Source of the DNA: Candidatus Ozemobacteraceae bacterium
GTDB lineage: Bacteria; Muiribacteriota; Ozemobacteria; Ozemobacterales; Ozemobacteraceae
Assembly (NCBI GenBank): GCA_965140445.1
Contig: OZ223236.1
Coordinates: forward strand, 3,650,498-3,714,497
Length of the DNA stretch: 64,000 nucleotides
Direction: 5' to 3'
The stretch's first letter is position 1. Each line of letters opens with the position of its first letter. The notes beneath the pieces were generated by a model that was not told the DNA's origin, searched no databases, and was given only the letters and a program-made list of their open reading frames with translations. The position numbers and the translations under genes were made by a program. Shown here one piece after another: positions 14,699 through 48,657 of this stretch.

Positions 14699-16900
14699 CT
14701 AGATACTTCCACGCTGTTTCAGTATTTTTACAATAGAATCCACAACCTGGATACCTTTTGTTCCGCGGCCAAAGCCGTCATCCATGCCACATTCCTTGGC
14801 GATTTCTCTTGTAACCTGAGTTCCTCCAGAAATTAGAATAATTTTATCTCTTATTCCTTTTTCTTTGCAAAGTTCATCAAGTTTTCGCATGTTATCTCTG
14901 TGAACATCATTGTGGGAAATAATAGTGCTAATTAAAATAGCTTGAGAGCCAGTTTCAATCGCAGCGTCAACCATTTTTCCTATCGGAGCTGAAGTTCCCA
15001 TGTAATGGTATTTAACTCCGTATTTTTCGATTCCACCGTGTTTAATATCAAGAATTTCGCGCATTCCTACAGAATGTTCGTCTTCTCCAACTGTACCGGC
15101 AACGACTTTTAATCCAATTTTCTTAATCCCGGCGCGAATTTCTTCCTCTGGGAGGATTATCTCTTTTGGCGGTATTTTTAGAGTGCTTTTATCAATAGCA
15201 AAATCAACTTTTCCCTTAACTTCAAGGAAAGTTCCTTCTGACGGATGCATTACCTGGGCATTAATAACTTCTGGGTCACGAAGTCCCATCTTTTTGGCAA
15301 CTTCAAGAGCCGCAACCTTTGCAACTTCAATTTCTTCCGGAAGAAACAGCTGAATAAGAATATTACCGTCGCCAGCCCATTCAGTTTCAGGTTTTATCAT
15401 TCCACCAGTTCTGAAATCTCTGGTTTTTTCCAAACGAAGGTTGCAATTGTCAGTATCGTCTATCTCATCAATGTAATCTATTTTTTCAGGGTTACAAATT
15501 GTACATCCGCCAATTGGATCACAAGGTTTTTTATACAGCTCAACGGCTTTGTTCTTGCCAAAAGTGCTACAAACAGGTGCTAAATAGTCATCTTCGCGCT
15601 CTATTATCGAATCTGCTCCCACGCCGCCCTTTCCATCGCGTGCAATTCCATCGCCGCTTCTTTCAGGATAACTGGCAGAATCAACAAAGAAACCTTTTTC
15701 TACTGCAGCAAAATAGCCACCAACTTCAAGGATTTCTTCCAGGAAGCAGATTGATTTTTCCTTGATATCGCGAACCATTTCACCTAAGGGGCCTTCTCTA
15801 TCAAGCTTTACAAGTTGCTTAATTCCATCGAGGGCTACGAAGGTCTGCTTTGCAGTCTCAATCCCTCTGATGTTATTGTAATGCCAGGGCACATTGCGTC
15901 CTTCGTCAGGAGTAATTGTACTCTGAATATCAGCCTTTGTAAGAGCAGAAATCAAAGTGTCAATCACATGAGTTCTGGTTGCTTCTTCAATATCAGCTTC
16001 AATGTATCTGGTATTTTGCTGAGCTCTAAACTTAAACTCATCAAAAATATCTCTTAATGCTACCGCATAAGGCAAGTCATACCAAAGTTTAGGGGAAGGA
16101 GGAGCACATGGAGGAACTGTCGACAATCCGATATGATCTTTTGGCATTCCACAGCCTACAGAGAAAGCGGAGTTCAAGCCATGCTGAACTAATAGCTCAG
16201 GCATAACTGACCAGCCCTCTTTTGCTGTAGCATTAGCATTATGAGCTCCATCGATCTGGAATATCTCAGCATCAGCCATAACCTTTTTTGCGCTAGCTGC
16301 ATCAACGAAAGATCTATACATGTTTACATTTCTGTATAAAACATTGTATTGAGGGTCCTGATGTGCGCCATTCACGCCTTCTTCAGCAAAAAGAACAGCA
16401 ACTTCCGGGCCTGCAACTCCTGATACGTATGAGTGAAAGTTAATAGGTCTTCCTACTTCTTCTTCTATAAGGTCACAGGCTTTCCTTGAAGCTCTAATCT
16501 GTTTGCGGGTAATTGGAACCCCTCCAACCCCTTCAGGAGTCCCTTCCAGGAGACCGTCAATGTGACTCTGGCCTGTGGTTCTAATAACCATAATATGGTC
16601 TGCGCCATGCCAGGCAGCCATTCGCATTCTGCGAATGTCATCTTCAAAGCGACCAGATGCGATTTCTGTAGTAATAACTGGTTTAGGCTGAGGATCAATA
16701 TTATCAAAATATTTTGCGGCCGGAAGAGGAACCGAATTTTTGAGTGGTTCAGCCATGTCTTTGTAATGAAATTTATGGGCTTTATATCCACCGGGAACTT
16801 CTTTACGCCATGTCCAGCCTTTTCTAGGTGGATGATACTTATCAAGGTCGTTAAGAATTTCTTCTATATTAATCTTCTTTTTAGGATCTAATTTTTGCAT
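14699..16900 (-). CDS. oraE: D-ornithine 4,5-aminomutase subunit E (PLP and B12-binding)
   Basis: 733 aa. C-terminal B12-binding DxHxxG motif (GEDEHSVG). Adjacent to a ~116-aa oraS-like gene. Confidence 0.8.
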   Translation of the reverse strand: MQKLDPKKKINIEEILNDLDKYHPPRKGWTWRKEVPGGYKAHKFHYKDMAEPLKNSVPLPAAKYFDNIDPQPKPVITTEIASGRFEDDIRRMRMAAWHGADHIMVIRTTGQSHIDGLLEGTPEGVGGVPITRKQIRASRKACDLIEEEVGRPINFHSYVSGVAGPEVAVLFAEEGVNGAHQDPQYNVLYRNVNMYRSFVDAASAKKVMADAEIFQIDGAHNANATAKEGWSVMPELLVQHGLNSAFSVGCGMPKDHIGLSTVPPCAPPSPKLWYDLPYAVALRDIFDEFKFRAQQNTRYIEADIEEATRTHVIDTLISALTKADIQSTITPDEGRNVPWHYNNIRGIETAKQTFVALDGIKQLVKLDREGPLGEMVRDIKEKSICFLEEILEVGGYFAAVEKGFFVDSASYPERSGDGIARDGKGGVGADSIIEREDDYLAPVCSTFGKNKAVELYKKPCDPIGGCTICNPEKIDYIDEIDDTDNCNLRLEKTRDFRTGGMIKPETEWAGDGNILIQLFLPEEIEVAKVAALEVAKKMGLRDPEVINAQVMHPSEGTFLEVKGKVDFAIDKSTLKIPPKEIILPEEEIRAGIKKIGLKVVAGTVGEDEHSVGMREILDIKHGGIEKYGVKYHYMGTSAPIGKMVDAAIETGSQAILISTIISHNDVHRDNMRKLDELCKEKGIRDKIILISGGTQVTREIAKECGMDDGFGRGTKGIQVVDSIVKILKQRGSI

Positions 16901-22327: not shown

Positions 22328-23191
22328 TTAATCAAAATCCCCATCATCATCTTCATGCGGATAATTCTTTTCCGCACACTCGGGACAAATCCCGTGACTA
22401 AATTTTGCCATAGAATGTTCCGAGATATAGTTTTCAACTCGATCCCAATAGCCTTTGTCATCCCTAATCTTTTTGCAGTGTGAGCAAATAGGAATAATAC
22501 CCTTAAGAGTTTTAATCTCCTCCATAGTATTCCTAAGCTCTTTAATTAAGTTTTCCTTTTCGGCATTAGATTCCTCTAATTCTTTAACAACCTTTTCCAC
22601 GGCTTTTGTTGAATTATTTAAGCCTTCCTGGACCATTCCCCTTGATTTCTCCATTACAAAGGAAAAAAGAAAAATAATCAAATAGGCTGAAACACTTCTA
22701 ACTCTTACATTAAAATCATATTTTGCAACAAAACTAAAATGCTTATCAAAAAAGAAAACTGTAAGCATGACCAGCAATAAACACCAGGCAATTCTGCTCC
22801 CATTTTTTTCTCCCAGAAGGAAAACCGAAATTATTGGAAAAGTGAAGGACCAAACATAACCAGAATTAGAAGATCCCCCAGAAATAAGCAAAAAACAATA
22901 CAATAAAAAGCCTACAGAAACACCCATTATAGAAAATAGCCTATAGTTTTTTGTTTTTCTAAGCAAAATCAAAAATAATAACAAAACGATTGAACAGGAA
23001 AAATCTACAAAAGCCAATTGATAATTTCCCTGATAGCTAGCAATGGGTGCCAGAATCAGAAGAGTAGCCATGGAAAATAAAAGGGTTAAATTCAACATCA
23101 GAGTCCGTCTCAAAGCTTCTATTTCATGCTTCTTTGACAAACCTGAAGAAATAAAATCCCAGAACCATTCTTTTAAAGTTTTCAGAGACAT
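22328..23191 (-). CDS. Membrane sensor (multi-TM N-terminus) - coiled coil - C-terminal Cys4 zinc-ribbon-like module (paralog A)
   Basis: Five or six predicted TM helices. C-terminus LKGIIPICSHCKKIRDDKGYWDRVENYISEHSMAKFSHGICPECAEKNYPHEDDDGDFD. Confidence 0.75.
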   Translation of the reverse strand: MSLKTLKEWFWDFISSGLSKKHEIEALRRTLMLNLTLLFSMATLLILAPIASYQGNYQLAFVDFSCSIVLLLFLILLRKTKNYRLFSIMGVSVGFLLYCFLLISGGSSNSGYVWSFTFPIISVFLLGEKNGSRIAWCLLLVMLTVFFFDKHFSFVAKYDFNVRVRSVSAYLIIFLFSFVMEKSRGMVQEGLNNSTKAVEKVVKELEESNAEKENLIKELRNTMEEIKTLKGIIPICSHCKKIRDDKGYWDRVENYISEHSMAKFSHGICPECAEKNYPHEDDDGDFD

Positions 23192-23224: not shown

Positions 23225-24079
23225 TTAATCATCATCAAAGTCCTCTTCAGAGTATAGCTCTTTAATGCAGTCTGGACAAATACCATGACTAAATTGTGCC
23301 TCAGTATGGTCGGTAATAAAATTCTCGACTCTATCCCAGAAGCCCTCATCGTTTCTTATTTTTTTACAGCACGAGCACATTGGTAAAATTCCTTGTAAGG
23401 TGCTGACCTCATTCATTAATTCCTTTAACTCATGAATGAGATTTTCCTTAACTGCTTGAGCTTTTTCAAGTTCTGTAACAGACTTTTCCATTTCGACTTT
23501 AGACTTATTCAAGTTCTTTTGAATAGAATCTCTCAATTCTTCCATCACAGCAGCAAAAAGAAAGATTAAAAAATATGCCGACAATGCTCTAATTGCAATG
23601 TTGAAATCATAACTCTCCAAATAAGGAATTTCATTTCCCGCGAAAAAAACAATACCAACAAAACTAAACAAAACAAGACTAAAAAAAGCGCCACGCTGGT
23701 TGCCAAGCAAAAAAATAGAAATCAAAGGGTAAGTAAAAATCCAAACATGTGAAGCTCCACCAACACCACCTGTACCTGATAAATAAGCAAAAAAGACACC
23801 CGTTAGCGCTACTGCAAAGGTCGAACAGAATACATAATTGTGAGTTTTCTTATGATAAAAAAATAGAAAAAGTAAAATACCTAAAGTAATTGAATCAGCA
23901 ACTACAACTCTGTAGCTACCCTGAAAGTATGATAAAAGACCTAAAACAAAAATAAAAAAGCCGCCAAGAAAAACCAGAATATTAAACATAAAGACACGTC
24001 TAAGTTCTTCAATGTTATTTTTATCCTTAAGGCCTCCCGAAAAGAGATACCAAATTATTTTTTTTGATTCATTCTTCAT
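23225..24079 (-). CDS. Membrane sensor - coiled coil - Cys4 module (paralog B, tandem duplicate of A)
   Basis: Same architecture. C-terminus LQGILPMCSCCKKIRNDEGFWDRVENFITDHTEAQFSHGICPDCIKELYSEEDFDDD. Confidence 0.75.
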   Translation of the reverse strand: MKNESKKIIWYLFSGGLKDKNNIEELRRVFMFNILVFLGGFFIFVLGLLSYFQGSYRVVVADSITLGILLFLFFYHKKTHNYVFCSTFAVALTGVFFAYLSGTGGVGGASHVWIFTYPLISIFLLGNQRGAFFSLVLFSFVGIVFFAGNEIPYLESYDFNIAIRALSAYFLIFLFAAVMEELRDSIQKNLNKSKVEMEKSVTELEKAQAVKENLIHELKELMNEVSTLQGILPMCSCCKKIRNDEGFWDRVENFITDHTEAQFSHGICPDCIKELYSEEDFDDD

Positions 24080-26231: not shown

Positions 26232-27284
26232 TTGCGTGAAATCAAAATCATAAATACAATTAAAGTCTGGAGAAAAGATTTGTTTAAGTATTTAAAAATT
26301 AAGTTTGTATTTATTATCGCACTGTTAGCGTCCTTGTCCCCCCTATATGCGGGCAAAATTTCCACGGACGAAATTAAACGACTTCAGAATGTAAACGAAA
26401 CACTTATCAACCATATTTCAATAATGGAAGAAGAGTTTGAAGCCTCACCTTCGTTAAATAAATACAAAAAAGAATATTTGTCAGCAATCCCGACTGATTC
26501 CATACTACCAGTTGCAAATACGGTTATGGCTAAAACTATTGCTGGCGCGCCGTTTGTGTTTCTTGGAGACGAACATACGACCCCTCAATCTCAAAGAAAT
26601 ACTATTTCTGTTTTGCAAATGATGAAAAAGAACCCTGCCCCTTTAACCCTGGTTATTGAGTGGATTGATATAAGTTACCAAAAAGAGATAAACAACTTTC
26701 TACAGGGAAAAATAAAAATTTCTGATTTAAGAAAATGCATATCTTTTGATAAATACTGGGGATTTTCATGGGCTAATTATTCAAAAATATTGGGTGCAGC
26801 TAAAAAATTGAAAACCCCCATTCTTTTAACTGAAAGATTGAAAAACAGCCATTCCTTATCTGATAGAGACACTTTTATTGTAAAAAAGATTTTAGAACAC
26901 AGAGAAAGTAATCCCAAAATGCGATATCTGGTTGTTTATGGCGATTACCATATTCTAGGAAAACTTCATCTGTCTGAAAAAGCTGCGAAAGCAGGTTTGA
27001 AGCCTCAATTGCTTCTTCTGGGTGGTGCTTCAAAGGTTTATTGGAAGCTTTTAAACAAAATCCAGGATCCCGACAAAACTTCCTTCGCAAAATTGTCCAG
27101 AGGGATTTTTTACATAAGGAATGGAACACCCTTAGAGAGAAATTTATCTTACCGCAACTACCTGCTTAAAATTCTTGGTTACAGTAAAGACGATTTTGAC
27201 ATTTGGGTGGACAAAAGAGACATTTTACCAATTTCTGTTTCAACTAACCGATTTGACTCATTACATTCTACACCAGCCAGATAA
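26232..27284 (+). CDS. Secreted ChaN/Tiki-like family protein (putative)
   Basis: Signal peptide. GDEHTTPQSQ resembles the GxxH motif of the ChaN/Tiki superfamily. Low certainty. Confidence 0.45.
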   Translation: MREIKIINTIKVWRKDLFKYLKIKFVFIIALLASLSPLYAGKISTDEIKRLQNVNETLINHISIMEEEFEASPSLNKYKKEYLSAIPTDSILPVANTVMAKTIAGAPFVFLGDEHTTPQSQRNTISVLQMMKKNPAPLTLVIEWIDISYQKEINNFLQGKIKISDLRKCISFDKYWGFSWANYSKILGAAKKLKTPILLTERLKNSHSLSDRDTFIVKKILEHRESNPKMRYLVVYGDYHILGKLHLSEKAAKAGLKPQLLLLGGASKVYWKLLNKIQDPDKTSFAKLSRGIFYIRNGTPLERNLSYRNYLLKILGYSKDDFDIWVDKRDILPISVSTNRFDSLHSTPAR

Positions 27285-27486: not shown

Positions 27487-28326
27487 ATGCGAAATCTATT
27501 TGTTTTTTTTACATTGTGTATTATTTTGATTAGCTTTACAGGCTGTAACTCATTGTGGGACTTTGATGACGATGATAGCACTTCTGCAATTGTTTCGACT
27601 AAAGCACCAGCAAACGCAAACTCATTAAACAATGTAACCCTGAGCATAAACCCTACGATAAGCTTTTCAGGAAACTCGTTTACATATGTTAATAACGTAT
27701 CCGATCATTCTTCATTCCCAACAACAGGTGGCGTTACGCTAACAGGTTCCTTTACCTACACGCCAGATGCTACTAATACCAGTTCCGCAAGCCTTTTTCT
27801 TGATTTTTCAGGAACAACTGAAGATATATTGCTAGTTTTGTCTAATTTTAACGGCACAGGCTCATCAATCACCTCTTTTACAGCCGCTTATAAAACTTAC
27901 AATTTTCAGGTCACAGTAACGGGGGGAACCTTGGTCCCAGCACCTTCTACAAACACGACCACCAATACAGGCACAACAACTTCAGGAACAACTGCAACAA
28001 TTCCAGAAAGCATTAAAGGAAAAAACCTGACTTTAACCCTGGATACACTATCAAATACAGCTCCTGCTTCTTTCCCTTATAAAAAAGGTGACACAGAACA
28101 ATTTACTTTCAGTTCAAGCAGCATGCTATTTGTAGGAAAAACATCTCCCCAAAATGAGTTGGGTTTGCCATCTACCTACACTGGGAGCTCTGAATATATT
28201 TGGTATGATAAAACTAATTCTTACTATGTCGCCCTATCAACCAAAAGTGATGGATCATTTAATGAAATAAACATTTATAGTAAACCGATTGGTGGAATTT
28301 TCTACGGTCAGTTTGTTCAAAAATAA
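27487..28326 (+). CDS. Ser/Thr-rich lipoprotein, hypothetical
   Basis: Lipobox LISFTGC. A low-complexity T/S-rich beta-like region follows. Confidence 0.5.
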   Translation: MRNLFVFFTLCIILISFTGCNSLWDFDDDDSTSAIVSTKAPANANSLNNVTLSINPTISFSGNSFTYVNNVSDHSSFPTTGGVTLTGSFTYTPDATNTSSASLFLDFSGTTEDILLVLSNFNGTGSSITSFTAAYKTYNFQVTVTGGTLVPAPSTNTTTNTGTTTSGTTATIPESIKGKNLTLTLDTLSNTAPASFPYKKGDTEQFTFSSSSMLFVGKTSPQNELGLPSTYTGSSEYIWYDKTNSYYVALSTKSDGSFNEINIYSKPIGGIFYGQFVQK

Positions 28327-28329
28327 AAA

Positions 28330-28366
28330 AAATGGGCGATTCATCTTATTGAATCGCCCATTTTCT
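28330..28366. terminator. Bidirectional terminator between convergent genes
   Basis: tgggcgattca-tctt-attgaatcgccca hairpin flanked by A- and T-runs. Confidence 0.55.
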
Positions 28367-28374
28367 TTAATAAA

Positions 28375-29376
28375 CTAATCGTTGTCTTCCCAGTCCAGTT
28401 CTGGATAAAGCTCCTTTGCGCAATCGGGGCAAATTCCATGACTTATTTCTGCATCAGTATTATCGTAGATGTAAACTTCTAATTTACTCCAGTATCCTTT
28501 ATCGTTTCTAATTTTGTGACACTTACAACATAGAGGAAGCAGGCCGGAAAGAGTTTTAATTTTGGAATTTGCAAGCTGAAGATTTTTAATTAATTCCTCT
28601 CTTTCAATTGCATATCGTCTTTTTTCGGTTACATCAGCGTGCGTACCACACATCCTTGATGGTTTTCCCTGCTCATCATAGGAAACGACCTTTGCCCTGT
28701 CCAATATCCATTTTATAGATGAATCCTTGCAAATCATTCTATATTCAAGCTCATGGATTGGCTTCTTTCCATCCAGGTGGTCTTTAATGGAATTCCATGC
28801 TTTTGCCCTATCCTCTGGATGCACAAAATCTTCCCACTGTTTTACCGTAAACTGTATTTCTTCAAATGTATATCCTAGGATTTTAGCCCACATCTCATTT
28901 CGTTGGACTTCTCCAGTTTTCAAATTCCAGTCCCAAAAGCCAAGTTCACTAGCATCCAATACTAATCTAGTTCTTTCTTCACTATCCAGAACTTTTCTTT
29001 CGGCAATAATTCGAGGGGTAATATCAACAAAACTAACGCTGAACTGACCTTTTTTAGGAGAAAATGCGTTAACATGGAAGTGTTTATTTAGTTCCTGAGA
29101 AAAATTTTCAAACTGAATAGGTTCCCCTGTTAGGGCAACTTTTCCATATTTTTGGATCCAACTGTGCTCTGTACCAGGCATCAAATCAAGAATAGTACGA
29201 CCGATAATATCTTCCGCCTTCATACCAGTCAACTTTTCAAAAGCAGGATTAACTAGTAAGAACCTATAGTCAACGGGATTTCCTTGGTCATCACAAATAA
29301 TTTCATGATGCGCAAAACCAAACACCGCCTCCGCAAACAACAGGGCGGCTAATCCAGTGTCAACTTTAGAATCCAC
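28375..29376 (-). CDS. Cytoplasmic 2xPAS sensor - coiled coil - Cys4 module (paralog C)
   Basis: Two PAS folds. C-terminus LSGLLPLCCKCHKIRNDKGYWSKLEVYIYDNTDAEISHGICPDCAKELYPELDWEDND. Confidence 0.8.
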   Translation of the reverse strand: MDSKVDTGLAALLFAEAVFGFAHHEIICDDQGNPVDYRFLLVNPAFEKLTGMKAEDIIGRTILDLMPGTEHSWIQKYGKVALTGEPIQFENFSQELNKHFHVNAFSPKKGQFSVSFVDITPRIIAERKVLDSEERTRLVLDASELGFWDWNLKTGEVQRNEMWAKILGYTFEEIQFTVKQWEDFVHPEDRAKAWNSIKDHLDGKKPIHELEYRMICKDSSIKWILDRAKVVSYDEQGKPSRMCGTHADVTEKRRYAIEREELIKNLQLANSKIKTLSGLLPLCCKCHKIRNDKGYWSKLEVYIYDNTDAEISHGICPDCAKELYPELDWEDND

Positions 29377-29411
29377 AATAAACCTCGTTAATCTTTTCTT
29401 TCCAAAAGAAT

Positions 29412-29843
29412 TTAGCTTAAAAAGCTAACATATCCTTTATCTGTACCTTTGATATGATTAATTAACCAATCTTTTAGGAAGTTCATAATTTCAATGCTTA
29501 ATCCAATTTTTCCGGAATCAAAAGATTTTTTAAAATCAGAGATTCTTGCTTCAAATTCTTTATGCTTTGCTTTATGAGCAATTACTTCTGAATAAGAGGT
29601 TCTTTCAAACATTGATTCCTCTTTTCTAAAGTGATTTTGTGTGTAGGAAATCAATTCTTTCAGGATTTTTCCTTGAATATCATTTCCTTTACCTTCTTTA
29701 AGCGCATCAAAAAGCTCATTTATCATTGATACCAGCTTTTGATGTTGAGTATCTAGCTCTGCGTTTCCAACACTATAAGAATTATTCCAGTTTAACAAAG
29801 CCATTAAAATCACCTCGATTAAAAATACTGCAACTCTGTACAA
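29412..29843 (-). CDS. Hemerythrin-like metal-binding protein (bacteriohemerythrin)
   Basis: WNNSYSVG...LDTQHQKL...H-x-EE..F...H pattern typical of hemerythrin His/Glu ligands. 143 aa. Confidence 0.75.
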   Translation of the reverse strand: MYRVAVFLIEVILMALLNWNNSYSVGNAELDTQHQKLVSMINELFDALKEGKGNDIQGKILKELISYTQNHFRKEESMFERTSYSEVIAHKAKHKEFEARISDFKKSFDSGKIGLSIEIMNFLKDWLINHIKGTDKGYVSFLS

Positions 29844-29904
29844 TTTTAATTAAACAGGGGTTAAAATGCAATTAGTTAAAAAGCCCGAATAAGCACTTAT
29901 ATTC

Positions 29905-30873
29905 TTAAATTATCAGGTCTTTTTCTGCTTGTGATTGATTAAAGGCGGAAAAAGCCGGGTCATAAAGCATAAGCTTTTTACTTCTTACGCCTTGCTGTAA
30001 ATCGTGCCCCTCATCATTCCAGCCAACAAAAATTTTACAATCACCACCAACTTCCTTCATTCTGCGAATTATCAGTATTAAAGCTTTTACTGCGTCTTCC
30101 ATAAAAGCCCTTGGATGATCAGGGAAAGCAAATGTACCTTTTTCACTTGGGTAATAAGGATGGAAATTAAAATCAACAGTGACATGATGTTTTTTCATTA
30201 GCTCCAGCCCATAATTTATTGTAGCTACAGAATCCGCAACAGCTTCTTTTCCAGAGATTCCAGGCGGCTGAAATAAAACATTTATATCTACCGATGTTTT
30301 TGGCAAAAATTCTTCCAGAACACCAAAAACATTATCCACCTGGTCTCGGGTAATTTTTTTATTCAAATTAACTAATCGAACCGTATCATCTTGGCTTTCA
30401 AGACCTATAGTAATGGCAAAGGTTTGATCATCTCTTAATTTTTGAATAAAAGGATTAATTCTTTGCCTTGTTATAAATTGTTCTCGAGAATCAAAGCTGA
30501 TTCTTCTAATTGATGGTTGGGAACTTACAAAATCTAAAATACCATCAATAGTTCTGGTTGAGAACTCAACTTCATTCATAGTTGAACCATAATTATAAAT
30601 TACCAAATGGTTAATTTTTCCCCAAACATCTGCATAATATTGCTTAAAAAATTCCAGTCTTTTTAAATTCATTTCTGAAGTAAATTGCAATCCTTCTCCC
30701 TCACCAATATCGCAATGATTGCATTGAACTGCGTGAAATGGGCATTTTCCACCTACAGCTTCATTTCCAAAAACAATAGCAAGCCTTAATCCACGTGGTC
30801 CTGTAACGGGGTTAAAAAGAGAGCCTTCAGGAGGTTTAATATAATCTTCCATTTTAAAATTCACTTTTCCCAT
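29905..30873 (-). CDS. Hypothetical protein with a CPFHAVQCNHC (C-x6-C-x2-C) cluster, possibly a radical-SAM-like/TIM-barrel enzyme
   Basis: A Cys cluster near the N-terminus but not the canonical Cx3Cx2C. Translationally adjacent to the carbamoyltransferase gene. Confidence 0.5.
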   Translation of the reverse strand: MGKVNFKMEDYIKPPEGSLFNPVTGPRGLRLAIVFGNEAVGGKCPFHAVQCNHCDIGEGEGLQFTSEMNLKRLEFFKQYYADVWGKINHLVIYNYGSTMNEVEFSTRTIDGILDFVSSQPSIRRISFDSREQFITRQRINPFIQKLRDDQTFAITIGLESQDDTVRLVNLNKKITRDQVDNVFGVLEEFLPKTSVDINVLFQPPGISGKEAVADSVATINYGLELMKKHHVTVDFNFHPYYPSEKGTFAFPDHPRAFMEDAVKALILIIRRMKEVGGDCKIFVGWNDEGHDLQQGVRSKKLMLYDPAFSAFNQSQAEKDLII

Positions 30874-30875
30874 TT

Positions 30876-32582
30876 CTATTTTCTGACTACAAAGTTTTCT
30901 ATAAACAAAATGTCTATTCCAGTTTTTAAAAAGGTGTTAATTGCATCCTCTGGACTCATAACAATTGGTTCAGAATCATTAAAAGAAGTGTTTAAAACCA
31001 TTGGAACACCTGTTAACTCATAAAAACTTGAAATGAGCTTATGATAAAGAGGATTGGTCTTATTTGAAACGGTTTGTATTCTGCTTGTATTATCAACATG
31101 CACTACAGCTGGAATTTGTGAAGCTTTTTCTTTTTTGCATGGGTAAGCCAAAAGCATGAAATCAGAAGATTGAGAATCCCCAAAAACCTCAAACCATTCG
31201 TTCACATTTTCGGACAGAACACTTGGAGCAAACGGACGAAACTCTTCTCTATGCTTGATTTTTTTATTCAAAATTTCACGCATATCCTTGCGGCGAGGGT
31301 CTGCGAGTAAAGATCTATTTCCCAGAGCTCTGGGCCCCATTTCCATCTGCCCCTGAAACCACCCAACGATTTTTCCTTCGCTTATGGCTTTTGCAGCTGA
31401 CTCAGCAGGCATATTTATTTTTTCATATCTTAACCCAGCTCTTTCAATTACATCGACAATTCTATCTTCATCATAGCTAGGTCCATGATAGGCATGAATC
31501 TGCTCAAATTTCCTTTCGCCTCCCTCAAGAACGCACCAGACGTAAAGAGCTGCACCCAGAGCTGTTCCAGCGTCATTAGCAGCAGGCTGAATAAAAACTT
31601 TCCTGAAACCGGAATCTCTTTGAATTAATGCATTAGCAACGCAATTTAACGCTGTTCCTCCTGCCATGCAAAGATTTTTAGAAGTTGACATTTCCAATAA
31701 TCCTTTACAAAGAGCCAGCAAAGCTTTTTCAGTAAATCTTTGAAGACCTGCAGCAATATCCATGTGCCTTTCCAACAATTCTTCACCTGGCATTCTTGAG
31801 GGACCAAAGATCTTTTCAAGTGCGGTATAATCTTCATAGCGAAAAGATAGATTTTTTGAATCTAATTCAAACTTTCCGGTAGAATCAAAGGTAATAATTT
31901 TTGAAAATTCGTTTGCAAACTTTTCTGGATTTCCATAGCTGCTTAAACCCATAAGCTTACAAGCATCATGTTCTGAGAAACCAAGAAACTTGCAAAACTT
32001 TTCCCAGAGGAATCCCAGGCTATGTGGGTAAGGAATGCTGAAAAGTTCAGTAATGTTGTTCTTAATTCCTTTAAAAGCTGAGACTGTATTTATCTCTCCA
32101 ATACCGTCTACAATCAAAATTGTTGATTCTTCAAATTCTGAGCAAAAAAATGCGCTTGCTGCATGGCTCATGTGGTGGTCAACCCAACGAAATTTATTGC
32201 TAATATCTTCTTTGGCAAGCTTGCTAAGCACATCAGGAACAGACAATAAAAGTTCATGAAACCTGTTTTCTCCTGATTTACTTCCCCATAGACTATCCAC
32301 GACTCGTAAATCTTTACCAATATTTTGAAGTCGTCCATTTTGGGAAAAGGAATATGCAAAAAAATCAATGTCAGAAAAGCTAATTCCAGCTAACTCGAGA
32401 CATTTTTTTATTGCCAATTCAGGAAGTTGATGAGGGTTATTTACTGAAGACTTTTTTCCTCTTTTAACTCGGTTAAGTCTTTCTTCTTCAATAAAACAAA
32501 CAAGTTCGCCGTTTTTTAATAATGCAGCAGAAGATTCATGATATGCGCTATTTATTCCTAGTATGTACATTGGATTACTCAA
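30876..32582 (-). CDS. Carbamoyltransferase of the NodU/CmcH/TobZ family
   Basis: N-terminal Kae1/ASKHA-like MYILGINSAYHESSAALLKNGELV with HxxH-type metal site, and a C-terminal YrdC-like region. 568 aa. Confidence 0.8.
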   Translation of the reverse strand: MSNPMYILGINSAYHESSAALLKNGELVCFIEEERLNRVKRGKKSSVNNPHQLPELAIKKCLELAGISFSDIDFFAYSFSQNGRLQNIGKDLRVVDSLWGSKSGENRFHELLLSVPDVLSKLAKEDISNKFRWVDHHMSHAASAFFCSEFEESTILIVDGIGEINTVSAFKGIKNNITELFSIPYPHSLGFLWEKFCKFLGFSEHDACKLMGLSSYGNPEKFANEFSKIITFDSTGKFELDSKNLSFRYEDYTALEKIFGPSRMPGEELLERHMDIAAGLQRFTEKALLALCKGLLEMSTSKNLCMAGGTALNCVANALIQRDSGFRKVFIQPAANDAGTALGAALYVWCVLEGGERKFEQIHAYHGPSYDEDRIVDVIERAGLRYEKINMPAESAAKAISEGKIVGWFQGQMEMGPRALGNRSLLADPRRKDMREILNKKIKHREEFRPFAPSVLSENVNEWFEVFGDSQSSDFMLLAYPCKKEKASQIPAVVHVDNTSRIQTVSNKTNPLYHKLISSFYELTGVPMVLNTSFNDSEPIVMSPEDAINTFLKTGIDILFIENFVVRK

Positions 32583-32656: not shown

Positions 32657-33991
32657 TTACTCAAAATCCTTTTTAATCTTTTCAAAGCATTCTGGGCAAA
32701 TTCCATGAGAAAATTTGGCTTCAGAGTGTTTTGAAATATACTCCTCCATTTGGCTCCAGGCACCAGCATCGTTTCTGATTTTTTTACAATAAGAACAGAT
32801 GGGTAATATTCCCTGGAGCTTTTTTATCTGCTCAAAAGCCTCGCCAAGCTGAATAATTAAACCTTCTCTGCACTTTTCATTTTCTTTAATATCTGTTATG
32901 TCTGTGGCAATTTCTAAACGAACGACTCTGCCGTCTATCCATTTTATTGCCTTATCTCTACAAGCATACCATCGCTCGGTTAAAGGATTTAATAATTCCC
33001 ACTCAATAACACCATTTACTTCCCCATCATTACCTATCAATCTATCATTGGTGCAAAATTCACATGGCTTTCCACTCGTAACTCCTTGAAAATACTCATA
33101 GCATTTTCTTTTGCCTGGTTCACCAAAAGTTTTTTTGCAAAACTCATTAACTGCAATTAGCTCATAAGTTTCCATATCAGAAACATAAACAGGCATATCT
33201 ATTGAATCAATAATAATTTGATAAGCTTTTCTATCAGAATTTAAACTATCCTGAAATTGCTCATTTTGACTAATTTTACTCCCAATCCACCCTATCAACA
33301 GCATTATTAAAACAATCCCTAACACCCATACAGAAACCATTGAATCATAAAGATGGCGGACCATTTCTTTCTCATTGTTTAAAAGCTTATCAAGGGACAA
33401 TTTAATACCAACTCCACCAACCAGACTTCCAATTTTAAAGCTTTTATCTGTATGGCATCTTAAGCAATTAGCATCTGCAATAAGAGGTTTCATTGAGCAA
33501 AAGACCGTGTCGTTTCTATCACCAAAGTTAAAAAGGTATTCCTTTTCAGGATTTTCTTTCAGAATTCTAAGAGCTTCCAATTCCCAACCTATAGCTTTAT
33601 TTATTGGGTTTAAAGGGTTTAATCCAACAATTCTCCCTTTTATGCCATACATTTCGGAGTAATGTTCCATTGTCTGTTTTAAAACCTGAGCGGGACTCAT
33701 AAGAGTTAAATTCACTCCATTTTCATTGAAAATATCCCGATCTGGCAAATGAGATAGATGGGGGTTAGGCTCTCCTATTTCACTGATCTTAACGTAAACT
33801 CCTCCATGCCGGTTAACCCATGATCTGAATGCCCAATCCTTATTAGTAATAGTTTTAGCCATGTTTTTAGCCAATTCCAGCGTATGCTCGTGATAATTTT
33901 CTGCGGTAAAGTGAGCAACTAAAATCACTGAAGATATCCAAAAAACCACCACAAAAAAAGCAGCAAGCAAAAATCTATAATTTTTGGGCAT
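32657..33991 (-). CDS. TM - periplasmic DUF3365/Tll0287-like heme-c (CxxCH) sensor - TM - Cys-rich PAS-like domain - coiled coil - Cys4 module (paralog D)
   Basis: CLRCH heme-c motif at the end of the periplasmic domain. C-terminus LQGILPICSYCKKIRNDAGAWSQMEEYISKHSEAKFSHGICPECFEKIKKDFE. Confidence 0.8.
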   Translation of the reverse strand: MPKNYRFLLAAFFVVVFWISSVILVAHFTAENYHEHTLELAKNMAKTITNKDWAFRSWVNRHGGVYVKISEIGEPNPHLSHLPDRDIFNENGVNLTLMSPAQVLKQTMEHYSEMYGIKGRIVGLNPLNPINKAIGWELEALRILKENPEKEYLFNFGDRNDTVFCSMKPLIADANCLRCHTDKSFKIGSLVGGVGIKLSLDKLLNNEKEMVRHLYDSMVSVWVLGIVLIMLLIGWIGSKISQNEQFQDSLNSDRKAYQIIIDSIDMPVYVSDMETYELIAVNEFCKKTFGEPGKRKCYEYFQGVTSGKPCEFCTNDRLIGNDGEVNGVIEWELLNPLTERWYACRDKAIKWIDGRVVRLEIATDITDIKENEKCREGLIIQLGEAFEQIKKLQGILPICSYCKKIRNDAGAWSQMEEYISKHSEAKFSHGICPECFEKIKKDFE

Positions 33992-34070: not shown

Positions 34071-35471
34071 CTAAAATCCCTTCATTTCATCTAAGGAAAG
34101 CTCTTCATGCCGTTCAACCTTTATGTATGCTAACTTGATCAATTCTATTAATTGATCTCTATTTAAAAATTTGTTCAGGCTTACATCAGGTATGTTAGCG
34201 TAAATTGAAAGACGTTTTTCTGCCCTTTCTTCTGCAGATTCAAATTCGTCTAACGCCTTATTGGCTCCATCTACATCATTGTAAACAGTGGATATACACA
34301 TCTCATGATTAAGATTTTTTGCCAATTCCGTTCCTGGGTATGCGGAAACAGGAAAGAAACCAGCCTCATGCATGCCAAGCTTCGCGCACTCCACAGCAAA
34401 ATTAATGGTTTTACGCATTTCTTCAATCGTTTCATCGGGAAATCCAAGCATAAAAAAACATTTAGTCAGAATTCCGTTTTCTGCTAAAGCTTTTACGCTT
34501 CGTTTAACCTTATCAAGATTCAGGTGTTTCCTGATTTTGCTTTGCCTTTCCTGCACTCCTGTCTCTACGCCCAGAGCAACATAGTGACATCCAGTCTCTG
34601 CCAGCCTCTTAACATCATTTAATTCAAGGTGATCAGCTCGACCAATACAGCAATACAAGCGATTTAAATCAGTAATCTGATCAAAGAATTCATTTAACCA
34701 TTTTTTATCAGAGAAAAAAGAATCATCCATAAAACCGAAGTTAGAATTTGAGAATAATTCCTTATAGTGATTTAATTCTTTAATAAGCCTTTCAACACTA
34801 ACTCTGCGCATTTTGCCAGGCCAGAGAACAGGTGTTGCGCAAAAAGTACATTTAAAAGTACATCCCCTTGAGGTACTCAAGAACAGCCATCTTGGCATGC
34901 CAAGCTTTTCCTGGAATGAAAGATATTTTTCAATATCAACCAATGAGAAATCAAGAAAAGGAAGTTCATCAAGGTTTTCCAAGTGATCCCTGGCAGGATT
35001 TTCTATGACCCTGCCTTCTTCTTTGAAAGCCAGGCCTGGAATTAACTTTAGATTTTTAAACTCACTTTTTAAAAGCTCTTCTAAAGTAAGTTCTCCTTCT
35101 CCGATTACTCCAAAGTCCAATGAATCCTGTATAAGTAAATCATTGCTGGAGGTTGTCATCATTGGACCTCCACCTATAGTAAAAATACTGGAGTCCGTTT
35201 CTTTTACTTTTTGCAGAAATTCAATGGCGGTTTTAAAAGTTCCCTGATAAAACGGAACTCCAACTGCTTTTGGGCAATAAGCAAACACCTTTGCTATAGT
35301 TTCATTTAATCCAATATTTTCACTGACAACATCTATGATACTGACTTTTAAGCCTCTGGTGTTCAAATACGAAGCAAGATAAAGCAGATTCAAAGGCGGT
35401 TTTAAATCCATTCTTCCTTTTTCATGCCAATTTAAAGGCGGATTTACTAAAACTAGATCAGCAAAAGACAT
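34071..35471 (-). CDS. B12-binding domain-containing radical SAM protein
   Basis: N-terminal B12-binding-like Rossmann region. Radical SAM CTFKCTFC (Cx3Cx2C). Confidence 0.8.
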   Translation of the reverse strand: MSFADLVLVNPPLNWHEKGRMDLKPPLNLLYLASYLNTRGLKVSIIDVVSENIGLNETIAKVFAYCPKAVGVPFYQGTFKTAIEFLQKVKETDSSIFTIGGGPMMTTSSNDLLIQDSLDFGVIGEGELTLEELLKSEFKNLKLIPGLAFKEEGRVIENPARDHLENLDELPFLDFSLVDIEKYLSFQEKLGMPRWLFLSTSRGCTFKCTFCATPVLWPGKMRRVSVERLIKELNHYKELFSNSNFGFMDDSFFSDKKWLNEFFDQITDLNRLYCCIGRADHLELNDVKRLAETGCHYVALGVETGVQERQSKIRKHLNLDKVKRSVKALAENGILTKCFFMLGFPDETIEEMRKTINFAVECAKLGMHEAGFFPVSAYPGTELAKNLNHEMCISTVYNDVDGANKALDEFESAEERAEKRLSIYANIPDVSLNKFLNRDQLIELIKLAYIKVERHEELSLDEMKGF

Positions 35472-37454: not shown

Positions 37455-38870
37455 CTATTCTGGCTTAATTTTATCTTTTCTTAAAAGCTCATCAGCATGT
37501 TCAGGGTAAAATTTTTCTACACATTCAGGACAGATACTATGGGAGAAATTCAAATCAGTATTTTTCCCAAAAAAGCTTTCTATTTTTTCCCAATAACCGG
37601 TATCGGTTCTAACATTTTTGCAATGAGAACAGATTGGAAGCATTTCTTTTAGGGTTTCAACTTTTTCCGCCAACTTTGCATTGGCTTCCTGCAAATCTGC
37701 TTTATAGCTTTCGATTTTATCCATATAGCCATTAAAAGACCTTGCAAGCTCTCCAACCTCATCTTCTGAGCTGACAGATAAACGTAATGAAAAATCGTCT
37801 TTTTCACATTGAGCTATCTTTTGAATTTTTTCTGTTAAAGGCTTGGTAATAGAATAACTAACAGCAGTGGAAACAGGAATCAGAATTATCATTGTTAAAA
37901 CAATTAGTCCCAGGAAAACTAATTCAAACAACACTAATGGATGATACAATTCATCAAGATAGCATGATGAGGCAATTATCCACCCTAATTCAGGTATATC
38001 TTCGAATATAACCAACTTCTCTCTTACAGCCGGTTCACCAGGATTTTGCCATGGGTAGATTATTTTTCCAGATTTTCTTTCAGTCATTTCCCTGATAAAA
38101 TATCTTCCGGAAGAATCTTTAGAACCTGAAATGTTTTGACCTTCTAGAATAGGATGAACCAGGCAGTTTCCTGAATAATCAATCAAATAAGAGTAACCAG
38201 TATTTCTAAATTTTAGACCTAGAATTCCCTCCCGAAAATCCTCAACATCAATAATCTCTTTAAAATCTTCAACATAAAAAGAAGCTGAAATAATCCAATC
38301 CCAAGGCTCAAAATAAAGCATATAGAGGGCTTTTTTCCTTTTTTCAACCTCTCCTGGATTTTTCCACTCGTACATTAAAAACCCATTCTTCTCAAGAGTT
38401 TGTCTTTTAACAAAAGCAAAATTAGAAACATCTTGATCTACAAGCTCTTCATGTGGATGCATGCGTAAAAAGCCTTTACTATCAAGGCAATAAACATATC
38501 CATTTTTACCTATCACCTGAGTCTTGAGAATTTTATCTGCAGCTTTTCTCGCTTCTTCTTCTGTAATTTTTCCTTCTAATACCTGCTTATGCAAATCTGA
38601 AACGACTTGTAAACTAGAATTGGCAATAGATTTCAAATGATTTCTGATTGAAGACAAAATTGAGGTTTTTACTAATCTCTGCATGAGCTTTGTAGAAATT
38701 GAAAGCTCAGTCTCTACATTTTGTTCAATCTGATTTTTTAAAAGAAAATAGGTAACTGAGCTGAAAATTATTAGTATAGCTGAAAATGCAATAAAATTAG
38801 CAATTACAAGCTTTGTACGGATTTTTTGCTTATTAAAAAAACCTGACAATTCATAATCCCCTTCATACAA
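37455..38870 (-). CDS. TM - dCache_1 - TM - HAMP - coiled coil - Cys4 module (paralog E). MCP-like architecture with the MCP domain replaced.
   Basis: Cache region GYVYCLDSKG...HP. HAMP at ITKPLTEKIQKIAQ...VGELARSFNGYM. C-terminus LKEMLPICSHCKNVRTDTGYWEKIESFFGKNTDLNFSHSICPECVEKFYPEH. Confidence 0.8.
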   Translation of the reverse strand: MYEGDYELSGFFNKQKIRTKLVIANFIAFSAILIIFSSVTYFLLKNQIEQNVETELSISTKLMQRLVKTSILSSIRNHLKSIANSSLQVVSDLHKQVLEGKITEEEARKAADKILKTQVIGKNGYVYCLDSKGFLRMHPHEELVDQDVSNFAFVKRQTLEKNGFLMYEWKNPGEVEKRKKALYMLYFEPWDWIISASFYVEDFKEIIDVEDFREGILGLKFRNTGYSYLIDYSGNCLVHPILEGQNISGSKDSSGRYFIREMTERKSGKIIYPWQNPGEPAVREKLVIFEDIPELGWIIASSCYLDELYHPLVLFELVFLGLIVLTMIILIPVSTAVSYSITKPLTEKIQKIAQCEKDDFSLRLSVSSEDEVGELARSFNGYMDKIESYKADLQEANAKLAEKVETLKEMLPICSHCKNVRTDTGYWEKIESFFGKNTDLNFSHSICPECVEKFYPEHADELLRKDKIKPE

Positions 38871-44071: not shown

Positions 44072-44704
44072 CTATCCTTCTATTTCTAAATCACCGAACT
44101 CATTTTTCAAGCAATCAGAGCAGATTCCATGCGAAAAAACAGTTTCAGAATTCATTGTAATGTATTCTTCTAATGTAAACCAAGTGCCATCTACATTTTG
44201 AATTTTCCGACAATATGAACAAATAGACAACAATTCAGATAAATATTTAATTTTTTTCTTAGCTTCTTTCAGGTTTTTATTTGTTCTAATTAATTCTTTA
44301 GTCGTTTTTGCCAATTCATTATTTAAAACTGAAATCTGTCGGATAATACTATCAGTACGTTCCGTTTCAGGTATTCCAATCAGCAACCAATCTTTTTCCA
44401 TTTTAAAAATTTCACAATATAAAGGTATGGATAATGGATTTACAAAGTCTAAACTGATTTTCTTTTCTTCAGGAAACTGACTTATAAGTTCCTTTAGTTT
44501 ATTAACAGTTGCTGAAGTCAAAATAGTTGAGATACTATCACCTGGCTTAATATTACTTCCAGAAGTCTTTTTAAGATTTAAACTACTGGAATTAAGAATA
44601 TAATCTTCACTAAAAGAAAAAAAAGCAATTTTACTTGTGGAACTAACGTATTCAAGCACATAAGAAAAAATGGCTCCCTCATTTAATGTCACAATAAAAA
44701 CCAC
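44072..44704 (-). CDS. Small cytoplasmic protein: unknown N-terminal domain - coiled coil - Cys4 module (paralog F)
   Basis: C-terminus LSELLSICSYCRKIQNVDGTWFTLEEYITMNSETVFSHGICSDCLKNEFGDLEIEG. Overlaps the upstream B12-binding protein gene by 16 nt. Confidence 0.75.
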   Translation of the reverse strand: MVFIVTLNEGAIFSYVLEYVSSTSKIAFFSFSEDYILNSSSLNLKKTSGSNIKPGDSISTILTSATVNKLKELISQFPEEKKISLDFVNPLSIPLYCEIFKMEKDWLLIGIPETERTDSIIRQISVLNNELAKTTKELIRTNKNLKEAKKKIKYLSELLSICSYCRKIQNVDGTWFTLEEYITMNSETVFSHGICSDCLKNEFGDLEIEG

Positions 44705-45804
44705 TCTCTTGCTAGTTTTTTTGCTTCTATGACATCATTTGCAAAACCATTTGCCCCAATTCTCTCCCATAGCTTGGGATTCTCATTAAAGCTTCGTCCC
44801 CCAACCATTATTTTAGTGTCTTTTAAAGCCTCTTGATTCTTTATTTGAAAAATCATCTGCTGCACCACTGTTAGATTAAAAGGCATCGTCACAGAAACAG
44901 CCAGAATGTTTGGTTTAAATTCGTAAGATAAGTTTAAAACGTCTTGAACAGGAGTATTTGCACCAAGGTATCTAACTGTCCATCCATCGTATTCCAAAAT
45001 ATCAGCAATCATCCACGCCCCTAACTCATGAAATTCGTTAGAACATGCGGTTACAATTGCCCTCTTATTGTTTGGACATGATTTAAAATCAAGTTGAGCT
45101 AACCAGGCCATAACTCTATTAACAATTGCTGAAGTAAGATGCTCCTGAGCGACCGAGATTTCGCCTCGCTCCCAGAGACAGCCTATCTCGTACATTGCCT
45201 GTTGCAAAACATGGATATAAAATTCTTCCAAGTCAGCAATTGAATGAACACTTCCTTTTGCCAGGTTTAGACTTCCTAAGTGGTCTGCCTTTAGCAAAAA
45301 CCGCATAAGTTCATTTTTGCAACTGCTCCATCTTCCATTTGTGCATGAGCTTTGGATTAAAGGACTTCTTGCTAGATCCACAAAGTCTTCATGATGAGCA
45401 ATCATCCAATTGTAAACATCGAGAATCTCATCTTTAAGTTCTATAGGAAACAATTGCTCTACAGCCACTTTCCAAGCTTTTAACTCAATAGGAAAATACT
45501 CAAAGGAAAACCCATGGTTGGAGTATGTTTTATAAACCCATAATACAGTGCGACTCAACAATTCAAAATTATTAAGCGAAAAAACCGATGTCATAAAAGC
45601 AGCATGGTTTTTGTGGTTATCCAGCATTTTTTGCAAATGATTAGAGCCGATGAGAGAAATCACATTTTTGTTTTGCGACAAATTGCAATCTACTGATTCA
45701 ATTAGCTTTGGACAAAGTATCTCATACTCTTCGGCAGCCTTTTGGGAAACTTTTCTTATTGAGCGAGTGGTTTCTATCAAGCTTTCAATAGACAACATGG
45801 CCAT
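44689..45804 (-). CDS. Cobalamin-binding protein (helical N-terminus + B12-binding_2 four-helix bundle + B12-binding Rossmann domain). No DNA-binding or catalytic domain.
   Basis: DxHxxG-type motif SNEFHELG followed by the Rossmann-like pattern LGANTPVQDV...ILAVSV. Confidence 0.7.
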   Translation of the reverse strand: MAMLSIESLIETTRSIRKVSQKAAEEYEILCPKLIESVDCNLSQNKNVISLIGSNHLQKMLDNHKNHAAFMTSVFSLNNFELLSRTVLWVYKTYSNHGFSFEYFPIELKAWKVAVEQLFPIELKDEILDVYNWMIAHHEDFVDLARSPLIQSSCTNGRWSSCKNELMRFLLKADHLGSLNLAKGSVHSIADLEEFYIHVLQQAMYEIGCLWERGEISVAQEHLTSAIVNRVMAWLAQLDFKSCPNNKRAIVTACSNEFHELGAWMIADILEYDGWTVRYLGANTPVQDVLNLSYEFKPNILAVSVTMPFNLTVVQQMIFQIKNQEALKDTKIMVGGRSFNENPKLWERIGANGFANDVIEAKKLAREWFLL

Positions 45805-47616: not shown

Positions 47617-48657
47617 TTAGAAGCCTCTTTCGTATGCCGATTTTCCCATAAGACATGCAGGAATAGGAAGATCTGACATCCTCTTTAAACCAGGTGAAGC
47701 TTTTAAAACTATTGGAATCATATTTACAGCCGCTGCCATAGTGCCTTTACCGCCAGGGATTTCAGGGCTAATGCTCATATTTATTTCTGGATCACCAATA
47801 ATTTTTATATAGTCACCAGTTTCAACATTTTCTGTTCCTGGATGAATTTGCTGTGGATGAATCAATTTAATAACCTCTTCACCTTTTCTATAGCCAATTC
47901 CAATGTGTCTACAGCCAGCAACCATACCAGGCTTAACTTTTACAACTGGCGTTTCTCTTTCAGTGTTTGAAATAATAGGCTCACGAGTTTCTTCAATATT
48001 ATCAACTTCTAATCCAATTGCATCTGAAATCATTTTTATTGATTCAGGGAAGCCAATATGCCCAACGATTGAACCATCTTTTAAACCTGCTTCAAACTCC
48101 TCAGGTGTAGATCCTACGCCCTGTGTTTCCATAACCGTTTTTCCAAAAGGAGAAAGGTCATTGATTCTGCTAGCTTCAATTCTCTTTACATTTAAACATG
48201 CACCAGAAAGATTAATAATAAGCTGATCAAGGACAAAACCAGGATTAACACCAGTTCCAAGAAGTGTTACACCATTTTTTACAGCAAGCTCATTAAGTTG
48301 TCTTGCTAATTCAGGCTCTTGCGCTTGCGGGCATGCCATTTCCTCTGCAATAGTAATTACATTAATTCCTTTTTCCAAAACAGTCTTCAGACTGTCAAAA
48401 ACATTTTTAGTAAAAGAGTGAATAGCGTGAAGACAAACATCTACTTTATCTTTATCAAGAATTTCATCAGGGGAGGCATAAATCTTTACGCCAACATTTT
48501 TCCCTAAATTAAGAACTTCACCGACGTCTTTTCCAACGATTTCCTCACGTCTTTCAATAACACCAACAACTTCAATTCCTTCTTTTTCAAGCATGAGTTT
48601 TACCATGCCGCTTCCCATTGCTCCGAAGCCCCATTGAACGACTCTGATTGGTTTCAT
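47617..48657 (-). CDS. ord: 2,4-diaminopentanoate dehydrogenase (DapB-like NAD(P) oxidoreductase)
   Basis: N-terminal Rossmann VVQWGFGAMG. About 346 aa. Synteny with ortAB. Confidence 0.7.
   Translation of the reverse strand: MKPIRVVQWGFGAMGSGMVKLMLEKEGIEVVGVIERREEIVGKDVGEVLNLGKNVGVKIYASPDEILDKDKVDVCLHAIHSFTKNVFDSLKTVLEKGINVITIAEEMACPQAQEPELARQLNELAVKNGVTLLGTGVNPGFVLDQLIINLSGACLNVKRIEASRINDLSPFGKTVMETQGVGSTPEEFEAGLKDGSIVGHIGFPESIKMISDAIGLEVDNIEETREPIISNTERETPVVKVKPGMVAGCRHIGIGYRKGEEVIKLIHPQQIHPGTENVETGDYIKIIGDPEINMSISPEIPGGKGTMAAAVNMIPIVLKASPGLKRMSDLPIPACLMGKSAYERGF

Follow-up and report, generated by a model that had tools for sequence, protein, structure and literature searches.

H-NOX proteins with HnoK kinases or HaCE cyclases, and NosP with NahK, are stand-alone gas sensors that are co-transcribed with a transducer and bind it directly. 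Pairings with H-NOX recur in many genomes, and it is this conservation that established those systems. Among the hemerythrins, the di-iron site is the O2 or redox input in DcrH of Desulfovibrio vulgaris, where the hemerythrin is joined to a methyl-accepting chemotaxis protein (MCP), and in Bhr-DGC of Vibrio cholerae, where it is joined to a GGDEF domain (PMC9388753). Single-domain bacteriohemerythrin (bhr) genes are also found beside signalling genes in methanotrophs, in which bhr-66 adjoins a response-regulator histidine kinase and bhr-77 and bhr-88 are part of a chemotaxis cluster (PMC12607906). The locus described here is in a window of 64,000 nucleotides (the whole stretch of DNA that was analysed; contig OZ223236.1, positions 3,650,498 to 3,714,497) from a Candidatus Ozemobacteraceae bacterium. 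In this window a gene for a single-domain bacteriohemerythrin is followed, on the minus strand, by a gene for a protein with two PAS domains and a C-terminal Cys4(+His) module, referred to as paralog C. The two genes are probably a bicistronic operon, this being the most economical reading of their layout. Within what would be a lineage-specific operon, the hemerythrin may act in trans on the PAS-PAS-Cys4 sensor, a tentative reading that may well prove wrong.

The gap between the two genes is exactly 35 nt (29377..29411, minus strand), as the original prediction, made from the sequence letters and their open reading frames (ORFs), had stated. It carries a GAGG ribosome-binding site for the GTG start of the PAS gene (28375..29376, minus strand) and has no terminator: the fold of 29365-29425 reaches only −7.4 kcal/mol (z +0.45), with no hairpin, and the terminator scan found none in the gap. 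A strong intrinsic terminator (28324..28369, minus strand) begins 6 nt past the stop of the PAS gene, with a 20-bp stem, a 6-nt loop and a U-run; its stability is −27.5 kcal/mol (z −7.43) and was equalled by 0 of 200 shuffles. This terminator is located between convergent genes. The plus-strand gene at 27487-28326, encoding a Ser/Thr-rich putative lipoprotein that belongs to no family, is convergent with the PAS gene, and the ChaN/Cofac_haem_bdg-type gene at 26232-27284 (+) also points toward it, the hairpin being common to the PAS gene and the plus-strand genes that converge on it.

On the other side of the pair there is a promoter-like element (29843..29871, minus strand) approximately 38 nt before the hemerythrin ATG. 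It consists of a −35 sequence TTGCAT (29871-29866), a 17-nt spacer and a −10 sequence TAAAAT (29848-29843), and was read directly from the sequence; with 3/6 and 5/6 matches it is under the threshold of the promoter scanner, which lists nothing at this position. In the nearest relative of the locus, the metagenome contig L001, there is a TTGCAA-17-TAAAAT at the equivalent site, 41 nt before the hemerythrin ATG. The element in the window and its counterpart in L001 are together suggestive of a promoter upstream of the hemerythrin. The promoter-like element, the gap without a terminator and the strong terminator after the PAS gene together favour a bicistronic operon. Known RNAs, riboswitches included, were considered for the leader and rejected, as the 64-kb window has no match to any Rfam family.

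The promoter-like element lies inside a 100-nt gap that separates the hemerythrin from the gene upstream of it. This upstream gene (29905-30873, minus strand) encodes a 322-aa protein that is a distant relative of the radical-SAM family TIGR01210 (E 5e-14, below the cut-off, and with no Pfam match). It begins 2 nt downstream of a gene for a NodU/CmcH-type carbamoyltransferase (30876-32582, minus strand).

The hemerythrin was originally placed at 29412-29843, as a protein of 143 aa with a TTG start. The gene is present, yet this ORF is a mechanical call and the coding sequence is instead assigned to 29412..29804 on the minus strand, giving a product of 130 aa. The ATG at 29804 is almost certainly the true start, since it has a GAGGTG ribosome-binding site 6 nt upstream, the exact 130-aa product is annotated in NCBI/ENA (P0121) and the N-terminus is common to the relatives, with 35 of 35 aligned sequences starting MA(L/F)..W at this position. 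The product matches the NCBIfam bacteriohemerythrin family NF033749 with 157.5 bits (cut-off 84) over profile positions 1-128 of 129, and PF01814 of Pfam with 56.6 bits (cut-off 25.3). The His/Glu di-iron pattern noticed originally is borne out as a full H-H-E-H-H-H-D set, the ligands H21, H58, E62, H77, H81, H117 and D122 being invariant in an alignment of 36 sequences. The best solved match is McHr of Methylococcus capsulatus (4XPX, E 4e-20, aligned 1-127), to which all seven ligands and the pocket residue L114 align residue for residue; L114 is the position that is mutated in 4XPW, 4XPY and 4XQ1. DcrH-Hr (2AVK) is also a detectable homologue (E 1.3e-15). By its sequence the protein is a canonical single-domain bacteriohemerythrin, an ordinary member of the family, and presumably binds O2. 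It is not fused to a signalling domain: the stop codon at 29412-29414 is followed by the 35 nt of non-coding sequence and then by a separate GTG start.

The 333-aa product of the PAS gene is identical to an annotated protein (P0001). It was described originally as a cytoplasmic protein of two PAS domains and the Cys4 module, and this architecture is supported by Pfam, by an AlphaFold2 model and by the lack of a membrane segment. Both PAS domains are recognised by Pfam, one as PAS_3 (98.9 bits) and the first as PAS_9 (45.1 bits) and PAS (44.2 bits), with PAS_4 and PAS_8 also matching the first. The model (predicted local distance difference test score, pLDDT, 90.7) has PAS1 at residues 20-118 (29023..29319, minus strand), a linker helix, PAS2 at residues 146-248 (28633..28941, minus strand), a 23-residue helix at 250-272 and a small C-terminal module. 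PAS2 is of the PAS_3 type, matching PF08447 over residues 159-246, and 3MR0 is its match in the PDB (E 2e-20). Foldseek places the model closest to tandem-PAS sensors, these being the Brucella LOV-PAS-HK (E 2e-16), DosP, FixL and NifL. The protein is probably dimeric.

PAS1 belongs to a conserved subfamily (GFALHEIICD...DYRFL.VNPAFE) in which no cofactor residue is recognised. A heme was considered for this domain, as the motif LMPGTEHSWIQKY recalls the LMPEP..HDGYLQRY of FixL, and was rejected because His71 (EHSWIQKY) is not kept in the relatives: the residues at this position in nine PAS1 relatives are A, S, Q, S, P, A, K, R and H. The match of PAS1 to EcDOS is weak in HMMER (E 0.05), pairing residues 39-96 with 42-99 at equal length, and in the numbering of DosP this presumably puts H71 opposite R74, not H77. 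A LOV photoreceptor was likewise rejected, since the flavin cysteine is missing (GRTILDLM, against GRNCRFLQ in the Brucella LOV-HK). Neither PAS domain therefore shows a recognised cofactor signature, of those checked (the LOV cysteine and a conserved proximal histidine). This leaves room for a signal that is supplied by a partner protein.

The Cys4(+His) module occupies residues 273-326 (28399..28560, minus strand) and follows the helical stalk of residues 250-272. Its family pattern is L-x-G-x4-C-x2-C-x3-R ... H-x2-C-x2-C at the C-terminus after a helical linker, and paralog C conforms to it with C283-x2-C286...R290...H313-x2-C316-x2-C319, in which six residues (C283, C286, R290, H313, C316 and C319) are invariant. 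The score of paralog C against the family hidden Markov model (HMM) is 99.4 bits. With four invariant Cys and one His, the module is predicted to bind metal and can be described as zinc-ribbon-like. At default thresholds neither Pfam-A nor NCBIfam has a family that matches it; at E<=10 only the zinc-ribbon families zf-C4pol, Zn_ribbon_3, DUF7558 and DUF3039 are matched, all below threshold. Of 120 short module proteins, 119 have no precomputed Pfam annotation. The AlphaFold2 model of the module (pLDDT about 80) has two short strands and two helices, with no significant fold match in the PDB and no detected DNA-binding fold.

A profile search of 1.84 billion proteins with the module returned 24,494 cluster representatives (50% identity) at E<=1e-3. 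In 124 of the best matches the domains that precede it include PAS_9 (45, the commonest PAS family), MASE6 (23), Receiver (12), HAMP (7), GAF (5) and PocR (3). This position after sensor and receiver domains suggests that it is a C-terminal output-type module. The size of the family, together with its absence from Pfam and NCBIfam, is more notable than the pairing with the hemerythrin. About 50 of the 150 best matches show two matched stretches, and proteins of 60-95 aa on long contigs may be stand-alone modules. Family members are found across bacteria and, beyond these, in the Asgard archaeon Candidatus Lokiarchaeum ossiferum. Literature searches with motif strings and keywords gave nothing relevant to the module, the sole analogue being HalOD2 (PMC5847659).

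The proposal for the pair is that the stand-alone hemerythrin would be altered when it binds O2 or when its di-iron site is oxidised, and that it would then bind or release the PAS domains of its operon partner. The stalk helix would pass this change on to the Cys4 module, which would be the output end of the signalling protein. The order and spacing of the genes, the terminator, the ligands and the domain architecture are direct observations; co-transcription, metal binding by the module, the contact between hemerythrin and PAS domains, and the direction in which information would flow, are reached by inference. The reading is favoured by the operon-like anatomy, with its 35-nt gap, ribosome-binding site, absence of a hairpin and closing terminator, and by the retention in L001 of both the promoter-like element and a close downstream gene start. 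It is also favoured because the hemerythrin is of the O2-binding type, with full ligands and L114, and because members of its clade adjoin signalling genes more often than expected. In addition, a second gene pair in the window hints at a recurring two-gene logic. In this pair a soluble 210-aa Cys4 protein (44072-44704) overlaps by 16 nt the gene for a 371-aa protein with B12-binding_2 and B12-binding domains (44689-45804, minus strand). Each of the two soluble module proteins of the window is therefore paired with a stand-alone protein that binds a cofactor, a hemerythrin in one case and a B12-binding protein in the other, which hints at a recurring pairing of cofactor protein and Cys4 transducer.

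L001 is a metagenome contig of 1,061 bp (JGI sample 3300036764) that carries the nearest hemerythrin (75% identity) and has 72% nucleotide identity to 29403-30420 of the window. Its positions 55-525 encode the C-terminus of the radical-SAM-like upstream gene, with 79% amino-acid identity. An AAGGAAG ribosome-binding site precedes the start of a further gene 38 nt past the stop of the hemerythrin, and of this gene only the first 4 nt are on the contig. The readable part of L001 therefore keeps the arrangement of upstream gene, hemerythrin and closely spaced gene start.

The clade to which the hemerythrin belongs was examined through immediate neighbours, taken as genes on the same strand within 150 nt (n=89), the controls being genes of the same loci at a distance of 2.5 kb or more (n=150). 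MCP genes make up 10 of the 89 neighbours and 4 of the 150 controls (Fisher p = 0.009). With all chemotaxis genes counted (MCP, CheW 4, CheB 2, CheR 1 and CheD 1) the figures are 18/89 and 4-8/150, for a p of 1e-5 to 9e-4. Receiver domains (5/89 and 3/150) and kinase ATPase domains (5/89 and 4/150) are also present. Single-domain hemerythrins of this clade are significantly enriched beside chemotaxis genes, and this supports a general role of the clade in sensing in trans. Single-domain bhr genes beside signalling genes have already been read as O2 sensing (PMC12607906). Two of the three closest relatives with a readable context adjoin signalling genes, one preceding a PAS hybrid kinase (L002) and one located between two MCP genes (L133); the third (L136) has no signalling neighbour. 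Hemerythrin genes often occur in tandem, and 11 of the 89 immediate neighbours are themselves hemerythrins.

Several observations weigh against a hemerythrin that signals to paralog C. The first is the lack of conservation. The hemerythrin and the PAS-PAS-Cys4 protein are each alone in their own 90% cluster. Relatives of the hemerythrin were found at 117 loci, 80 from genomes and 37 from metagenomes (31-54% identity, the best being at most 54% in the genome scan and at most 53% in the metagenome scan, with 1.1 Mb of flanks), and the Cys4 module is present in none of the 117 in any frame. In the reverse direction, no hemerythrin is found within about 3.5-4 kb in any of four distinct PAS-Cys4 contexts, which are those of the PAS-PAS-Cys4 homologue P0027, the only like-for-like case, and of the three PAS_3-Cys4 proteins P0019, P0063 and P0057. 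The pairing is seen in no other genome examined and is a single, unconserved instance, so that the conservation in related genomes looked for since the original prediction is absent from all of the loci and contexts surveyed. Fusions give no help either, since hemerythrin does not figure among the 25 commonest of the 39 families in the 124 module proteins; a rare fusion in the families beyond these 25, or outside the 124-protein sample, would be missed, and it can be said that no frequent hemerythrin-module fusion backs a link. PAS-containing genes are no more frequent beside this hemerythrin clade than among the controls (about 3/89 and 5/150; p = 1.0), as counted from the 25 families listed per set, beyond which single PAS neighbours could be hidden. 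The chance that a module gene lies directly downstream of a given gene in the window is about 12%. The transcription unit could also extend upstream, through read-through from the radical-SAM-like gene, since no clear terminator separates that gene from the hemerythrin; its end has only a weak hairpin (−10.5 kcal/mol, z −1.0). Finally, the characterised single-domain bacteriohemerythrins, McHr and Mhr of P. aeruginosa, are O2 carriers or buffers and not sensors (PMC9388753 for Mhr).

Some candidates were set aside in this comparison. L002 was considered as the same system, as it has a 61% identical hemerythrin followed by a GAF-PAS-PAS-HisKA-HATPase-REC kinase, and was rejected: the kinase is not orthologous to paralog C, with 25% identity over one PAS domain only. 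The proteins P0002 and P0078 were rejected as PAS-Cys4 orthologues because both are without the module, which leaves P0027 as the like-for-like homologue. Downstream of the gene for the PAS-PAS protein P0078 (L084) are genes for a MEDS-domain protein and for a HisKA-HATPase kinase that has no sensor part. In both L123 and L124, which are independent contigs, the gene for the PAS_3-Cys4 protein P0019 is followed by one for a metallochaperone GTPase of the CobW/COG0523 type. No conserved partner of the module emerged from the contexts examined.

A functional link between the two genes is plausible. The idea in the original prediction that the hemerythrin supplies the signal to the PAS protein finds partial support in the operon layout and the full ligand set, but the pair is not conserved where examined and PAS neighbours are no more frequent than the background. 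It is a reasonable hypothesis, and the operon structure is what it stands on. As it stands, the pairing generates a hypothesis and is not itself evidence.

It is possible, if somewhat unlikely, that the two genes are co-transcribed without mutual signalling. The hemerythrin would then be an O2 buffer or scavenger and an effector of a low-oxygen or oxidative-stress response, while the PAS-Cys4 protein would sense a signal of its own through its PAS domains and either autoregulate the operon or merely be expressed under the same conditions. The operon anatomy is in favour of this reading too, and the solved structure closest to the hemerythrin, that of McHr, belongs to an O2 carrier, in keeping with the carrier or buffer role of the characterised single-domain hemerythrins (PMC9388753; PMC12607906). 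The six module paralogs of the window, moreover, adjoin differing metabolic or transport genes (SulP transporter, B12-binding, radical-SAM and carbamoyltransferase genes), a placing typical of local regulators. A DNA-binding regulator is however a poor fit to a family in which many members are membrane-anchored (MASE6 in 23/124 and HAMP in 7/124) and in which the module has no detected DNA-binding fold.

Chance adjacency in a region dense with sensor genes, with no functional tie beyond perhaps read-through, is a little more doubtful. According to the family HMM the module is carried by 6 of the 52 genes of the window, all on the minus strand, whereas a simple regular expression found 4. Apart from paralog C these are two MASE6 proteins (22328-23191 and 23225-24079), a Tll0287-like protein with a transmembrane segment (32657-33991), a dCache-HAMP protein (37455-38870) and the 210-aa protein at 44072-44704, which is soluble and has an unknown N-terminus of 150 aa. 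There is only one hemerythrin in the window and just one of the six module genes adjoins it, so the adjacency alone carries little weight. The absence of the pair from all 117 + 4 loci and the lack of enrichment of PAS neighbours agree with chance, as does the fact that the partner seen to be conserved in L001 is the upstream radical-SAM-like gene. Against this, the spacing is tight, with a ribosome-binding site, no terminator between the genes and one strong terminator that closes the pair. L001 also has a gene start close behind its hemerythrin, and the clade is generally enriched beside signalling genes.

The stronger form of the preferred reading, that the hemerythrin is a dedicated trans-acting O2 or redox sensor of the PAS-PAS-Cys4 protein, with the B12/Cys4 pair as a second example of the same arrangement, is unlikely. 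The B12-binding protein could be explained instead by nearby genes for B12-dependent ornithine fermentation. These genes (14699-16900, 45934-47331 and 47617-48657) encode a D-ornithine/lysine aminomutase-like B12 enzyme, a pyridoxal phosphate (PLP) enzyme and a 2,4-diaminopentanoate dehydrogenase (E 1e-101). Their presence suggests an anaerobic, amino-acid-fermenting lifestyle, which is consistent with a need to manage O2. A B12-binding radical-SAM gene is also present, at 34071-35471.

A role of the hemerythrin in protecting or servicing a metal centre that is labile to O2 is very improbable. The centre could be the Cys4 site of paralog C, if this binds Fe as in rubredoxin and not Zn, or it could be that of the radical-SAM-type enzymes encoded upstream at 29905-30873 and 34071-35471. 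In favour are the CxxC...CPxC knuckles of the module, which resemble those of rubredoxins and zinc ribbons, the reported protection of Fe-S enzymes by Campylobacter hemerythrins, the B12/radical-SAM gene at 34071-35471 and the radical-SAM-like gene 100 nt upstream, which has no clear terminator between it and the hemerythrin and is kept next to the hemerythrin in L001. Against it, the top 25 families given per set for the neighbours of hemerythrins at the other 117 loci do not include radical-SAM, and the 322-aa protein is under the TIGR01210 cut-off with no radical-SAM match in Pfam.

If the hemerythrin does act in trans on the PAS-PAS-Cys4 protein, hemerythrin-based O2 sensing would extend from the fused proteins to a two-protein system, and a first physiological input would be at hand for a very large signalling family with a Cys4(+His) output module. 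With O2 as its defined ligand, and with sensor and transducer both soluble and the sensor small, the locus would then be an experimentally tractable entry to this widespread module. The enrichment of single-domain bacteriohemerythrins of this clade beside chemotaxis genes is the more robust by-product of the analysis.

Compared with the known systems, the hemerythrin is most similar to McHr and to Mhr of P. aeruginosa. All are of the same family and 130 aa in length, align end to end and have the seven ligands and, in McHr, L114. McHr is however an O2 carrier or buffer tied to methane monooxygenase and respiration and has no dedicated signalling partner gene, whereas the window hemerythrin is paired with a sensor-type gene. 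DcrH and Bhr-DGC differ in the covalent fusion of hemerythrin and transducer. Hemerythrins of the sensor type, such as DcrH-Hr, autoxidise rapidly, and carriers do not. As a separate 130-aa protein, the window hemerythrin is outside this chimeric hemerythrin-sensor class, and its putative transducer ends in the Cys4 module rather than in an MCP or GGDEF output. The single-domain bhr genes of methanotrophs are similar in lying beside signalling genes, as they do in the clade surveyed here, but among the loci surveyed a PAS-PAS-Cys4 partner is found only at that of the window.

For the module, the comparison is with HalOD2 of haloarchaea, a predicted Zn-finger output domain of a few halobacteria with 20-25 residues between its CxxC motifs (PMC5847659). 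The likeness is one of kind only, both being small C-terminal two-CxxC modules that follow sensor or receiver domains and are predicted to bind metal. The window module has about 29 residues between the pairs, an invariant Arg and an invariant His, and about 24,500 clusters. In layout, the H-NOX and NosP operons are a parallel, with a small sensor gene adjoining a co-oriented signalling gene. They differ in using heme and not di-iron, in their fold and in their conservation, the window pairing recurring in 0/117 loci, and they provide the working analogy for a mechanism in which a stand-alone hemerythrin would act on the product of the gene beside it.

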